DNA of 64,000 bases from Eledone cirrhosa (taxonomy: Eukaryota). The position numbers and the translations under genes are program-made. Shown piece by piece: positions 2,851 to 60,043 of this stretch. The notes under the pieces were generated by a model. That model was not told the DNA's origin and did not search any database. It was given only the letters and a program-made list of their open reading frames with translations. Positions within the stretch are counted from its first letter, which is position 1, and every line of letters starts with the position of its first letter. The stretch lies in contig OZ024742.1 in assembly GCA_964016885.1 (NCBI GenBank), positions 66,030,001-66,094,000 of the forward strand. Direction: 5' to 3'.

Positions 2851-3949
2851 AAGTAGATTGTGTTTGTTGAAGATGAGAAGACAGACACGAATAAAATTTA
2901 ACTTAGTAAGTAAAAGAAAAAATATATAGTCTAAATGCATCTAAGATAGACATACAGTATGTAAAATATGATGGATCAAACACCGTATATAAAACTGAGA
3001 TTTATATAAGGGGCTTTACATGAGATATATGTTGTGCTTGAGTGAATTCTGTTGTGTGAGAAATATACAGGACCGGAGAGTCACATATAAGATAGGGAAT
3101 ACCATCACATATATGAGTATGAGATGATAAAACTATGTCAGCATCCTTGTAGTGGTTGACCGGGCCAATACCAGCAGTATTGAGGTCATCATCTTCAAGT
3201 CTCGACTCATACGGACTGGTCACGTCCACAAAATGTATAGCACCTGATTGTCACGTAACATCATTTTCAGACTGCCTATGCAACACTGCAAAGAGCAATG
3301 GAAAGAGACGATGCAGAGCACGAACATCGATCCTAACATGCAAATAACAAGCATAGCGTATTCTTATCGAAATGACTGAGGAGGATAAAACGCTGTGATG
3401 AAAGATTTACCAACTCCAGAAATAGCCTCCAAAGACCATCAACATTTCTTTCCAAAATCCGGCTTTGCCCTCTACCAGAGACACAGTGTGGATGACAAAG
3501 GGTAACAGAACGACAAATATGCTCGAAAATGCGGAGGAATCGACATCGATATAAAATATATATGTGCATGCCTTTATGATATATATATATATATATATAT
3601 ATATATATATATATATATATATATATATATATATATATATATATATATATATATATTTATATATATATATATATATATATATATATATATATATATATAT
3701 ATATATATATATATATATATATATATATATATATATATATATATATATAAATATATATTTATATATATACATATATATTTATATTTCTACAGTGGATATG
3801 GCGCATGTCTCTCAGACATGACAACCATTAATTTAATTTTCGATATATATATATATATATAAAAGAAAATTTGGCTCTACAAGGCTGAATACAATAAATG
3901 TAATCTGAGTTTTTCGAATATTAATAATAACATTCGATTCGTTTGCAGT

Positions 3950-3999
3950 GAGCTGTAGTGATGAAGGCTGATACCCAGAAATATTAGTGTCTGCAGTTC
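3950..3999 (+). ncRNA. Minimal type-I hammerhead ribozyme (core mutated to GTGATGA)
   Basis: GAGCTGTA-gtgatga-AGGCTGATACCCA-gaaat-attagt-GTC-TGCAGTTC; paralogue of 4387-4436. Confidence 0.7.
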
Positions 4000-4386
4000 T
4001 GTTCGCATGCCAACTTAAGAGCAAGAATGAAGTGTTCATTCTCCTGACATGGCTATAAAATTGAGGGTTGTTTGCAAAATTGCCACCGAATCGAATGTTA
4101 TTATTAATATTCGAAAAACTCAGATTACATTTATTGTATTCAGCCATGTAGAGTGAAATTTTCTTTTTTATTTGAATTTGGCAAGCCGGCCATTTATCGC
4201 TTGTATACAGGAAACTGACTGGCCAGTCTGCTGATATGCAAATCTGGCTGATCAGTGGATCTGCTTATATGCAGATCTGACTAATCAGCCAGTCTGTTAA
4301 TATGCAAATCAGGCCGATCAACCAATGTGTATTTTTGAAAATAGCATATATTTACACTAGCTATGACAGTTTAGCAGGTGAACAGT

Positions 4387-4436
4387 GAACTGTACTGATG
4401 AAGGGTGATACCCAGAAACATTAGGGTTTGCAGTTC
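4387..4436 (+). ncRNA. Minimal type-I hammerhead ribozyme
   Basis: Stem I GAACTGTA/TGCAGTTC, core CTGATGA, stem II GGGT-gat-ACCC, GAAAC, cleavage triplet GTT. Confidence 0.88.
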
Positions 4437-5789
4437 TGCTCGCATGCCAACATAAAAGCAAGAATGAAGTGTTCATTCTCCTGACATGGCTATAAAATTG
4501 AGGGTTGTTTGCAAAATTGCCACCGAACCGAATGTTATTATTAATATTCGAAAAACTCAGATTACATTTATTATATATATATATATATATATATATATAT
4601 ATATATATATATATATATATATATATATATATATATATATACATATATATAATACAGAAATGGCTTCTATAGAACTAAAACTGTTTCATTCGAAGGAAAT
4701 CATCATATATATATATATATATTTTTTTTTTTTTGTTTTTCTTTCTGACCCAGGACTGGTCACATTGAAATATATATTGTGAACCAATGTTCTAACTTGG
4801 ACATGTTTTGAGGAATAAATCTTGTGTTACTCAACATGGAGCTGGCTTAGTCTCGTTGTCCTAGACCTTGCAGTTTCTGGGATATTTACATCTCAAATGA
4901 TATTAAAATCTCAAATGATATTAAATTTTTTGAAACACCCTGTATATATATATATATATATATATATATATATATATATATATATATACACGCACACATA
5001 TACACATACATACATGTATACATTTATATATACAACCACATATGTCTGTCTGTATGTATGTATGTATGTATGTATGTATGTATGTATGTATGTATGTATG
5101 TATGTATGCATATTTCTATTAGTGTGCACCTCTTTGCGGTGTGGGTTTGTGTTTGGGTATCTAGACAGAAGAGTTCAACCGTATCTTCGCATTACTTACA
5201 AGCTCTTATATGAAAAACAAAAGCCATTCTTTTCCACCATAAATTATGAGGACAATTACATTTCAGATCCACGCACCATTTTATTTCTAATGATTAATTA
5301 CATGCATTTTTTAATGATCTTCATGATATAGTCTCAAATTAAAAAGAGTAATGAATTATAATTACTCACTATGTAAATAAATCTTCAGACTCATTGTCTC
5401 CCACATTGAAGAACTTAATATTAGTAAAATCCAAGTAGAGACATAAACGTTCCGCATGTACACACATAGGCAAACACACTCATCATACATATACAGGCAC
5501 ACACATACGCACACACACACATCATACACATCATACACATACATACATACACACACACACACATATATATGTGTGTGTGACTGTGTGTGTGTGTGTGTGT
5601 GTGTGTGTATTCATCAGCATCTGACACAAAACTATCCAGGCGCAAATCGATAGTTTTTCGAGATCGACAGATGTCAATAATGTATATATATATATATACA
5701 TGCATACACATACACATACACACCACACACAAACACACACACACAAACACACACACACACAAACACACACACACACATACACGCACATT

Positions 5790-5975
5790 TAAAGGAACGA
5801 TCGGCTTTCGTCATATCGGATCGAGGAAACAATGTTTCCATTGGTCTTTCTAATTGCTAATACTATCTATCGGAAGGAGCTCAAGGACATAACGCATCGC
5901 CCGGTCTAGGAATTGAACTCACAACGTCACGATTGCGAATCCAATTCTCCTACCACTCAGCCACACGCCTTCACC
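5790..5975 (-). mobile_element. tRNA-derived CORE-like SINE (internally deleted)
   Basis: Reverse complement of the 9062-9280 family: tRNA-like A/B boxes and TGTCCTTGAGC, with a shared 3' tail. Confidence 0.75.
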
Positions 5976-6482
5976 ACAGGCTATATATATTTGTGTCTGT
6001 CTTTGTATATACTCGCGTTGCTGAACAGTGAACAAATATCTCATCATACATCACCACACATATGCATGTATAGCAGAACTACACATTCTACGTTGATGAT
6101 ATTTCATGCTATTGTTTGAAATAAGATGAGATCATAAATGAAGGAAAAACTCCAGAATATAGGTAAAATAAATGACGCAAAAATACCTCCCAATCCAAAT
6201 ATAGACTATAAACATGACAAAAATAAAGAAAGGTAGAAAATGGTAAAATATAAAGAGTAACAACAAAGGTAATAACAATAACAACAACATTTAGAACGAC
6301 AGCTCAGATTAAAGTAACAAAATATGTAACAAAAACAACACAAATGCATCGCAAGTTGCTTTTTTCCATTCATGTAATACTCTTTCTATAACGCTCCTGA
6401 TCTTTGTATGCGATTCGCCTAATATACCTCTCTCTCTCTCTCGTCTCTCCCCTCACTCTCTTCTACTCTTCCATATTCCACG

Positions 6483-6522
6483 GCGAACTGAAGAACTATG
6501 ACGTAAAACATTGTCTGTTCGC
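6483..6522 (+). ncRNA. Degenerate hammerhead motif
   Basis: GCGAA-ctgaaga-actatgacgt-aaaac-att-GTC-tg-TTCGC, about 80 bp upstream of a TA tract. GAAA is mutated and stem II is weak. Confidence 0.4.
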
Positions 6523-57847: not shown

Positions 57848-57985
57848 ACTTTATTTCTTATCGAACCCGTAAGAATGAAAGGCAAAGTTAACCGTAGCGG
57901 GATTTGAAATAAGGTCATAAAGGGCCGTAACTCTTTGCTACAAAGCATGGCGTCCGACATTCTACCTATACTGCCAATTCACCTA
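57848..57985 (-). mobile_element. Meta-domain tRNA SINE (partial)
   Basis: Family match over the head and Meta domain. Confidence 0.7.
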
Positions 57986-58929
57986 CCTCACTTAAAATAG
58001 TGATTTCATTTTATATATATATATATATATATATATATATATATATATATATATATATATATATATATATATATATATATATATATATATATATATATAT
58101 ATATATATATATATATATATATATATGTATATATATATATATATATATATATATATATATATATATATATATATATATATATATATATATATAAATACGG
58201 CTCCTTAATTGTAGAAGGACTCGACTGTTGTTTCTAGTTGTCGATAACCCTATTCACGCCACTGGGACGAAGCTTGTATGATGTATGTATTTCTACTAAA
58301 TACAACACGTGGTGCTGGCCAGTCACTGATTTGAACTTGAAGTGTAAACACGGATTGCTGGAACTGCTTCCTTGTTGAAAATCCATGTCTCTACTTCTGT
58401 GGTTTACCATCAGATTAATTGGTGAAATATATTTCTTTGATGGAATATATACAGGGAAGATTAATCATATTATAAGGTATCTATTTTTGAAGTTCTGGTC
58501 AACTTTATTTAGTTACCTACCTAGCTATGTGTGGTTACACACTTGTAAAATTATTCATGTTTATTTATATGTTAATCAATCTCTAGTTATTATATATATA
58601 TATATATATATATATATATATATATATATATATATATATATATATATATATATATACATACACATATATATGTATATATATATATATATATACAGGTATA
58701 TATATATATATATATATATACATACATACATACATACATACATATATATATATATATATATATATATATATATATATATACATATATATATATATATATA
58801 TATATATACATATATATATATATATATACAAACAAATATATATATATATATACAAACATATATATATATATATATATATATGTACATATATATATATATA
58901 TATATATATATATAAATATTTATATATAT

Positions 58930-59119
58930 ATAGGAAAAAGTATGACCCCGACGGCAGATCTCAAGCCGTTTCGACGTTTATTCAGAAATGGCCGTGGAAA
59001 CGGCTTGAGCTCTGCCGTCGGGGTCATACTTTTTCCTATTTCCCACTCTACTATCCTAAGTATTGAGTACTCTGGTGCTTTATGGTCCATCTTGTTCTTT
59101 ACCACAATTCCTTTGTTAT
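58930..59119 (+). repeat. Family F fold-back insert
   Basis: Arms 58930-58972/58997-59039; the long arm extends to 59119. Confidence 0.9.
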
Positions 59120-59131
59120 ATATATATATAT

Positions 59132-59321
59132 TAGGAAACGATCGACTTTTCATCAAATCGGACCGAGGAAACAATGCTTCCATCGGTCTTTCCAATTGCT
59201 AATACTATTTATCGGTCGGAACTGCAGATAGAAGGAGCAACATGAAATAAAGTGTCTCGCTTAAGGACATAACGCATCGCCTGCAAATCCAATTCTCTAA
59301 CCACTCAGCCACACGCCTTCA
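59132..59321 (-). mobile_element. tRNA-derived CORE-like SINE (deleted)
   Basis: Matches 5790-5975. Confidence 0.75.
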
Positions 59322-59600
59322 CTATATATATATATATATATATATATATATATATATATATATATATATATATATATATATATATATATATATATATATA
59401 TGTATGTATGTATATTTATATATATATATGTATATGTGTATATGTATGTATATTTATATATATATATATATATATATATATATATATATATATATATATA
59501 TATATATATATATATATATATATATATATATATATATGTATGTTTGTATATATATATATATATATATATATATATATATATAGAGAGAGAGAGAGAGAGA

Positions 59601-60043
59601 GAATAGAATGAAACGAAATTTCATTTCTCACTCTTAGTACGGCACTTACTTAAATGTAAGTGTGTATGTATGTATACGTACATACATATATGTATACAGA
59701 CGTACAGTAGTATGTATATATATATATACATACATGCACACATATATACATGCACGTATCGGTTTACCGAACATTCATTATAATGCTCGGTTTGTTTGTT
59801 GTAAACAAACAAACAGCCCGAATTACGCGGTACATTGTTCAAGCAACCACGTCACCTTTTTATTCAACACTGACACAGGAACGATGTACTAGTTTCAAGC
59901 TTATTAGCTATCATCAGCATCGTATACCTTCCTGCCAGATGGTTGAACGTCTGAAAGTATATACTTTCCTTATGCATATTAACGACTGAGCAGCCTAACT
60001 TGCATATCGAGTGAGTTCAGATGAGGGTATAAATGAAATCATT
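59601..60043 (-). mobile_element. Second copy of the 415-nt retrozyme-like element
   Basis: Reverse complement of 47902-48290, followed by a 22-bp foreign arm at 60022-60043. Confidence 0.85.
59881..59923 (-). ncRNA. Canonical minimal type-I hammerhead ribozyme
   Basis: ACGATG-ctgatga-tAGCTaataAGCTt-gaaac-ta-GTA-CATCGT. It differs from the 47998 copy only at the free N7 position. Confidence 0.92.

Follow-up and report, generated by a model that had tools for sequence, protein, structure and literature searches.

Hammerhead ribozymes beside (TA)n tracts in the genome of Eledone cirrhosa: truncated Penelope-like elements and retrozymes with a common insertion anatomy

The hammerhead ribozyme motifs found in a 64,000-nucleotide stretch of the Eledone cirrhosa genome (GenBank assembly GCA_964016885.1, contig OZ024742.1, positions 66,030,001 to 66,094,000; the whole stretch is referred to as the window and numbered from its first letter) appear to mark two kinds of insertion beside (TA)n tracts. 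One kind consists of truncated coding Penelope-like elements (PLEs), the other of non-coding retrozymes, and copying of the latter by a PLE protein from circular RNA is slightly favoured. A more detailed version is put forward tentatively and is rather doubtful as a whole: a PLE dimer would prime twice on one RNA circle and spool up to 17 laps into each arm, the ribozyme would end the run, and the telomerase-related reverse transcriptase (RT) would write a dinucleotide repeat by stutter.

Both strands of the window were scanned with a descriptor comprising the core (CUGANGA, GAAA and UH) with stems I and II; a stricter first descriptor had recovered five sites only. A first-pass annotation of the bare sequence had drawn about 20 type I hammerheads from more than a dozen unrelated families, and 19 of these 20 sites stand. 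Nine have a perfect type I core—4387 (+), 12418 (−), 12726 (+), 40909 (+), 44337 (−), 44539 (+), 46130 (−), 47998 (+) and 59881 (−)—compared with a mean of 0.03 and a maximum of one perfect-core motif in 100 block-wise dinucleotide shuffles of the window. The other ten are variant or decayed: six carry a change specific to the copy, other family members being intact (3950, 10724, 12876, 30327, 46400 and 49827), and four a core variant common to the family (U4C at 7110, 48975 and 49479; U3-A8 at 51130). Site 53531 as drawn is, judged from its alignment, no hammerhead, because GAAA is absent in 11 of 11 aligned family sequences. The 19 motifs represent 13 families and 16 insertions, with 3950/4387, 44337/44539 and 48975/49479 each paired within one insertion; the number of families is thus as announced, while their unrelatedness is not, some being related to each other. 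Helix III is exactly palindromic in 25 of 43 sampled motifs and within two mismatched positions of a palindrome in 37 of 43, the scan having given palindromes preference only where one site could be parsed in more than one way. Folding of single motifs at 12 sites gave z-scores that are weak in most. Rfam matches were mostly of microsatellites to microRNA models and uninformative; among those listed (150 of 410) there is one hammerhead, HH9 at 12402-12473, whose 38.6 bits lie below the gathering score of 52. The elements occupy 7.7 kb, or 12% of the window, and 17 of 70 spacers >100 bp, so that the earlier attribution of much of the spacer DNA to ribozyme elements was overstated.

Six families (10 motifs) are terminal repeats of coding PLEs: 12876/46400, 40909/44337/44539, 7110, 12726, 30327 and 48975/49479. 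Because the same repeat flanks or follows a PLE open reading frame (ORF) elsewhere in the genome, their window copies are identified, at the level of sequence, as 5′-truncated PLEs, often with an inverted second arm and a tail at one end. ORFs encoding an RT together with a GIY-YIG endonuclease (EN) at the C terminus lie between hammerhead-bearing repeats in loci L225, L236, L237, L241, L253, L247, L255, L256 and L012-L020. Pfam detects RVT_1 and GIY-YIG on L256 and a sub-threshold GIY-YIG on L253; it has no match on L225, L227 and P0098, where the PLE call combines tblastn with motifs. A Cys motif upstream of the EN is present and, judged by that motif alone, the elements would be assigned to the Neptune-like clade. 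The copies in the window are as follows.

6961..8411, − strand: 5′-truncated coding PLE with the RT end, GIY-YIG at 7489-7824 (Pfam), the 3′ repeat and a U4C hammerhead at 7114-7152; full-length relatives L255 and L256 (81-86% amino acid identity); 2179 pattern matches
12724..12865, + strand: coding-PLE 3′ end, perfect hammerhead at 12726-12763; ORF between repeats in L247-L249; 4485 matches
12866..12981, + strand: coding-PLE 3′ end, forming one family with 46362-47857; hammerhead at 12876 (G8A)
30127..30437, + strand: coding-PLE 3′ end, hammerhead at 30327-30381 (G8C); repeat-ORF-repeat in L236 and L237; 7691 matches
40654..41015, + strand: truncated PLE, tail piece and 3′ arm, perfect hammerhead at 40909-40974
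44207..44643, both strands: palindromic truncated PLE with two outward arms, one with an 83-nt tail, and perfect hammerheads at 44337-44401 (−) and 44539-44603 (+); full-length repeat-ORF-repeat copy in L225; 26851 matches counted jointly with the 46130 family
46362..47857, − strand: 5′-truncated coding PLE with zinc finger and GIY-YIG at 47455-47857 and a 3′ hammerhead at 46400 (A14U); in 9 of 9 other loci the EN is followed downstream by this terminal repeat; 151 scored matches
48772..49562, both strands: palindromic truncated PLE, U4C hammerheads at 48975 (−) and 49479 (+), right end with (CT)n followed by (TA)n; L241, L242 and L253 have the ORF between repeats

Four further families (six motifs) are non-coding tandem units of 437, 535, 467 and 421-433 bp, each with one type I hammerhead. 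In 47, 43, 29 and 16 copies, no PLE protein match was found inside the insert and up to 1.5 kb upstream, and by their structure these families are non-long terminal repeat (non-LTR) retrozymes. The proposed link between hammerheads and PLEs is therefore borne out by the six of 13 families that sit beside PLE ORFs; the notion of a non-autonomous retroelement population applies to the four retrozyme families and fails for those six. Five retrozyme insertions lie in the window.

3862..4571, + strand: 437-bp unit, a short inverted arm (3857-3947) and ~1.4 units, hammerheads at 3950 (C3G) and 4387 (perfect)
10664..11225, − strand: 535-bp unit (Rz535), 1.1 units, hammerhead at 10724-10805, in which this copy carries G8U; 5′ end situated ~10 nt behind the predicted cleavage site
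12198..12701, − strand: 467-bp unit (Rz467), 1.1 units, perfect hammerhead at 12418-12462; 4843 exact copies
47855..48290, + strand: 421-433 bp unit, ~1 unit back-to-back with a PLE arm, perfect hammerhead at 47998-48040; 3174 exact matches
59620..60042, − strand: second copy of the 421-433 bp family, perfect hammerhead at 59881-59923

The C3G hammerhead at 3950 is likely dead. Among the retrozyme hammerheads of the window, cleavage is predicted at 4428, 10729, 12425 and 48034. The 437-bp family has 1196 exact pattern matches, and its 437-444 bp spacing recurs in L250 and L251; the 467-bp family is also present, at ~97% identity, in a sequencing run of another organism. Folded as circles, units pair strongly with themselves (z −10.5, −4.4 and −8.1). 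Sizes of 421-437 bp fall within the 150-450 bp range given in 2020, and 467 and 535 bp lie above it, inside the 51-972 bp of Li et al. Positions 150-383 of the Rz467 unit and 129-358 of the 421-bp unit (Rz421) share ~200 nt at 65% identity, including a hairpin beside a 3′ end that is a candidate binding site for the PLE protein.

PLE and retrozyme insertions are built alike: their arms face outward, each family has two fixed 3′ ends, the 5′ ends are random, and TA tracts lie outside. The two fixed 3′ ends lie 35-165 nt apart, and this interval is the PLE tail. In Rz467, two places in the unit, positions 228-234 and 301-304 (numbered from the cleavage site), account for the ends of 48 of 49 arms, and 15 of 17 two-armed inserts carry one end of each type; Rz535 arms end at positions 70 and ~195, and the same two-end pattern is found in PLE-derived families. 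The scattered 5′ ends of retrozymes are joined via short microhomology. An insertion outside TA, L221, has a 16-bp target duplication that overlaps the element ends by four bases each. Most Rz467 arms (42/48) cross the cleavage site, 15 of them more than once, and the template was therefore not a cut linear monomer copied once.

In one Rz467 array, 18 of 18 full units are identical over both arms and differ at no fewer than four positions from other arrays. Its haplotype occurs at seven loci, where the 62 full units comprise 58 identical ones and four with one small indel; the arms measure 6.9/12.9, 17.6/8.0, ≥4.7/2.0, 8.8, 10.8, 0.5/1.8 and 0.4/0.9 units, so that five loci have an arm of about 4.6-17.6 units, the longest on C18. 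Large arrays were chosen for length, the seven haplotype loci by haplotype only. Dispersed inserts of older families reach 3.2 and 3.8 units at most in 3-kb loci, which cannot reveal long arms and limit this comparison. As the long arms occur in the youngest, identical-unit loci, we infer that long arrays were born long.

Two further features of Rz535 bear on the copying reaction. First, 19 of 79 arms break off 1-35 nt behind the predicted cleavage site, while exposure would lead one to expect 9.1%; the excess is present in two separately fetched sets (11/47 and 8/32), and in L280 both arms meet exactly at the predicted site. These 5′ stops are likely a footprint of hammerhead cleavage, to which AT-rich microhomology may add. 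Second, the template at the tail end reads CTCT then ATAT, and extra (CT)n is present at 44 of 46 listed tail ends but at none of 54 internal junctions, as counted in the first 100 of 359 matches; in an overlapping count, it is found at 42 of 44 tail ends versus 0 of 26 short ends. Targets that already read TA-CT-TA are rare (2 versus 2607 tract boundaries), and such a target is excluded for the nested insertion L090, whose host family has no CT run; L090, L100 and L095 are the usable empty paralogous sites among the matches listed. The (CT)n probably arose by stuttering of the RT at initiation.

These features can be accommodated in the following scheme. A tandem source would be transcribed, cut by hammerhead dimers and ligated into a circle. 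The PLE endonuclease would nick both strands of AT-rich DNA ~16 nt apart, and each nick, helped by a few bases of microhomology, would prime reverse transcription at one or the other of two internal start sites. The RT would lap the circle until it drops off or until the circle is opened again by the ribozyme, and the two complementary DNAs (cDNAs) would be joined through microhomology; stuttering at initiation would seed (CT)n where the template reads CUCU. A PLE studied in vitro cleaves two strands and uses two start sites bounding the tail (PMC11167929), a behaviour that the two-end, two-arm pattern matches and that supports PLE-driven copying.

Several points weigh against this scheme. Its RNA, circle and cleavage steps would have to be read back from genomic copies, and the PLE in vitro used mainly uncleaved RNA as template (PMC11167929). 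Between retrozyme units and eight PLE loci no homology was found beyond TA-rich matches, so that homology does not name the partner PLE. Chimeric arms do not name it either, as only 2 of 119 back-to-back junctions join different families, in a count that leaves out six hits from a common repeat nested in one library entry. A variant in A56 is confined to one arm, where it occupies units 1, 2, 4, 5, 7 and 8, and two types of unit alternate in L145, both pointing to later duplication or a multimeric template; a >30-kb satellite array with units differing at 27 sites on average indicates that DNA-level expansion occurs. The Rz467 stop excess is not significant (6/48, p=0.16), and arms of one insert are not independent in the stop counts. 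For (CT)n, L083 has a CT run at an internal junction, and (CT)2 beside (AT)n is rare genome-wide compared with longer runs (1 versus 17), so that this control cannot separate RT stutter from later slippage, which is the less probable source.

Both junctions between different families lie in the window, at 46250 and 47857 in the cluster 46086-48290, and may reflect either shared integration or later deletion; the one at 47857 joins a PLE arm to a retrozyme arm. The satellite array (L155+L079+L156, C28, ~110 Mb) consists of 421-bp retrozyme units in one orientation, with ~6% divergence and signs of higher-order repeats.

The multimeric template just mentioned could also be linear. The PLE protein may have copied long linear multimers escaping cleavage, or jumped repeatedly on a linear monomer, which we regard as unlikely although several facts suit it: minimal hammerheads cleave poorly in vitro (PMC4209133), eight of nine tested frog dimers remained uncleaved (10.64898/2026.07.22.740005), the alternating units of L145 would fit, the 17.6-unit arm on C18 could template all shorter arms of its haplotype, and stops behind the cleavage site agree with a linear RNA cut only at its first ribozyme. 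However, the two-end anatomy of C18 itself is fresh, and its source must have had at least 17.6 units, whereas none longer exists in the assembly for the pattern searched, and truncation only shortens linear templates. Array-specific haplotypes with identical units argue against switching between RNAs.

Insertions might, alternatively, be born with one or two units and grow by unequal crossing-over or slippage, (CT)n likewise. Such growth was proposed for vertebrate retrozyme arrays by Li et al., who favour unequal crossing-over (10.64898/2026.07.22.740005), and the period-3 variant in A56, the large diverged satellite array and the lengthening of internal TA sites without insertion all agree with it. 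It is nevertheless improbable, because growth with age predicts the opposite of young and long arrays: the longest arms occur in loci without substitutions among 62 units, on several chromosomes, and two loci are long on both arms. Copying from a circle by a PLE protein thus keeps our slight preference.

Ends of elements abut a TA run of at least 12 nt in 19 of 27 and 13 of 17 cases, against a background of 3.9%; TA is therefore a preferred target, as had been suggested. The accompanying suggestion that the elements amplify TA tracts is not borne out: an internal TA site has grown to 24-120 nt without insertion in 26 of 30 loci, which were selected for length, and the non-TA insertion L221 gained none. 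It is very improbable that nearly all motifs belong to non-autonomous ribozyme elements that generate TA tracts. The non-coding tandem units of four families would agree with such a view, element ends do abut long TA runs, target duplication makes two tracts from one, and L090 has TA of 24 and 16 nt where host copies have 11-13; nevertheless, six of the 13 families are ends of coding PLEs.

Contig C3, on which the window lies, belongs to a 3.0-Gb genome, and an RT protein of the window has relatives in Octopus and Argonauta with up to 70% identity. The share of TA tracts is 8.3% in the window, compared with 6.2% in a genome sample of 59 evenly spaced 10-kb stretches. This sample contains 58 perfect-core motifs, 15 of them within one tandem array, as against 0-1 in six shuffles; excluding the array, 43 motifs in 580 kb extrapolate to ~2.2×10^5 per genome (bootstrap 1.3-3.2×10^5). 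Ten exact family patterns, three of which span only the 3′ half of the motif, total ~62,600 genome matches. The window is not clearly richer in motifs than the genome mean (p=0.05). A hand count gave eight motifs in 300 kb on the four large chromosomes C1-C4 versus 35 in 280 kb on smaller ones, a ~5-fold difference, and the window is therefore motif-rich for its chromosome.

The proximity of motifs to TA tracts noted in the first-pass annotation is confirmed within the window (median distance 92 bp, background 335 bp). In a set of 50 motifs, 41 have a TA tract no more than 150 nt downstream of the cleavage site; on the upstream side 15 of 44 have one, and the background is 18.5%. The set of 50 leaves out five satellite false hits, one other false hit and 19 array units. 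For nine of its motifs this tract belongs to the unit itself, and without these the downstream count is 33 of 41.

PLE hammerheads, retrozymes and the link of the latter to PLEs have all been published (PMC4209133, PMC7229834, PMC7761336, 10.64898/2026.07.22.740005). With the PLE pseudo-LTR hammerheads of Cervera and de la Pena (2014, PMC4209133) the motifs described here share the short palindromic helix III, the extra base before stem II and the U3-A8 variant described there, as well as ~3 kb pairs around an ORF, close opposite-strand pairs and a predominance of truncated copies. They differ in scale (~2×10^5 perfect-core motifs, ~74 per Mb, versus 2,000-9,000 per genome) and in TA adjacency, of which the available text of that report makes no mention. 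For the axolotl, whose genome is larger by a factor of about ten, the number of motifs is 126,247 (10.64898/2026.07.22.740005). Metazoan retrozymes (PMC7229834; 10.64898/2026.07.22.740005) likewise consist of non-coding tandem units with one type I hammerhead each and low GC content, pair strongly with themselves as circles and co-occur with PLEs; unlike those described, however, the present ones have back-to-back arms, two fixed ends and, in the youngest copies, long identical arrays. Circles have been demonstrated in the species of those two reports, whereas the retrozymes described here are known from genome sequence. The copying of circles into tandem cDNA is a hypothesis of PMC7229834.

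Canonical EN-containing (EN+) Neptune-like PLEs (Craig et al. 2021, PMC8557442; Frangieh et al. 2024, PMC11167929) share with the present elements the C-terminal GIY-YIG with its upstream Cys motif, partial tandems, an inverted 5′-truncated copy, a tail at one end, a bias for microsatellites, two internal RT start sites and AT-rich targets; 5′-truncation, the inverted second arm and the tail were described for PLEs in PMC8557442. Tails are 35-165 nt long here as opposed to 30-40 in canonical PLEs. Frangieh et al. (PMC11167929) found no reads ending at the cleavage site, whereas genomic 5′ ends of one retrozyme family cluster behind it here. Truncated PLEs are hence already known, and the new part is the insertion anatomy of the retrozymes. 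A full-text literature search, covering titles and abstract openings but not supplements, Repbase entries or subscription papers, listed no paper reporting retrozymes in cephalopods, retrozyme arrays placed back-to-back or a PLE RT that adds repeats.

For three hammerhead families, neither a tandem unit nor a link to an ORF was found in the fetched loci (11 loci for the 46130 family, none with a linked PLE ORF).

46086..46330, − strand: 46130 family, perfect hammerhead at 46130-46196; back-to-back with the 80-bp 3′ end of the 46400 PLE (46251-46330, +)
49782..50005, − strand: 49827 family, long-stem-II hammerhead at 49827-49919 (C3G in this copy)
50995..51242, − strand: 51130 family, U3-A8 hammerhead at 51131-51170; second, palindromic insert at 43976-44175; 10850 exact matches

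At L246:1316-3625, an open 770-amino acid PLE ORF of the 32100 group lies between TA tracts inside an insert of the 51130 family. An A-to-I editing footprint was considered and rejected, as six families had no consistent A>G excess on the ribozyme strand.

Other repeats in the window include PLE sequences without a hammerhead.

53290..53873, + strand: coding-PLE 3′ terminal repeat without hammerhead, following a PLE ORF in L031 and L043
30454-33709, + strand: frameshifted near-full PLE of another family, beginning directly at a TA tract and containing a Thr-rich minisatellite (30950-31390); a terminal hammerhead was looked for and none found
6627-6948: palindromic TA-bounded insert without hammerhead; related sequence downstream of PLE ORFs in L028 and L050
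14418-14602, 37381-37443, 50793-51001 and 58912-59132: TA-bounded inverted-arm family with 22 matches in the 580-kb sample and no hammerhead in the descriptor scan, perhaps a PLE end that lacks a canonical ribozyme
17883-18226, 19019-19222, 21980-22167, 23138-23338, 23641-23868, 42235-42429, 43270-43847, 56781-57012 and 57848-58002: 200-bp repeat resembling a short interspersed nuclear element, with about ten window copies and no tie to TA tracts
116-2133, − strand: broken long interspersed nuclear element, RVT_1 match at 1588-2133

Mobilization by PLEs and copying of circles have been proposed in the literature and remain unproven there; at stake are how animal retrozymes move and why PLEs carry hammerheads. 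Young, countable insertions bearing the integration signature of PLEs, their start sites and a likely cleavage footprint make the model of PLE-driven rolling-circle copying directly testable. Ribozyme elements also explain part of the TA-bounded DNA in an octopus-like genome; the main text of a 2026 repeat annotation of Octopus vulgaris mentions no ribozymes. If the model is true, single insertions would record rolling-circle retrotransposition, hammerhead cleavage in vivo and the birth of a microsatellite, at the highest hammerhead density found for an animal in the reports surveyed.

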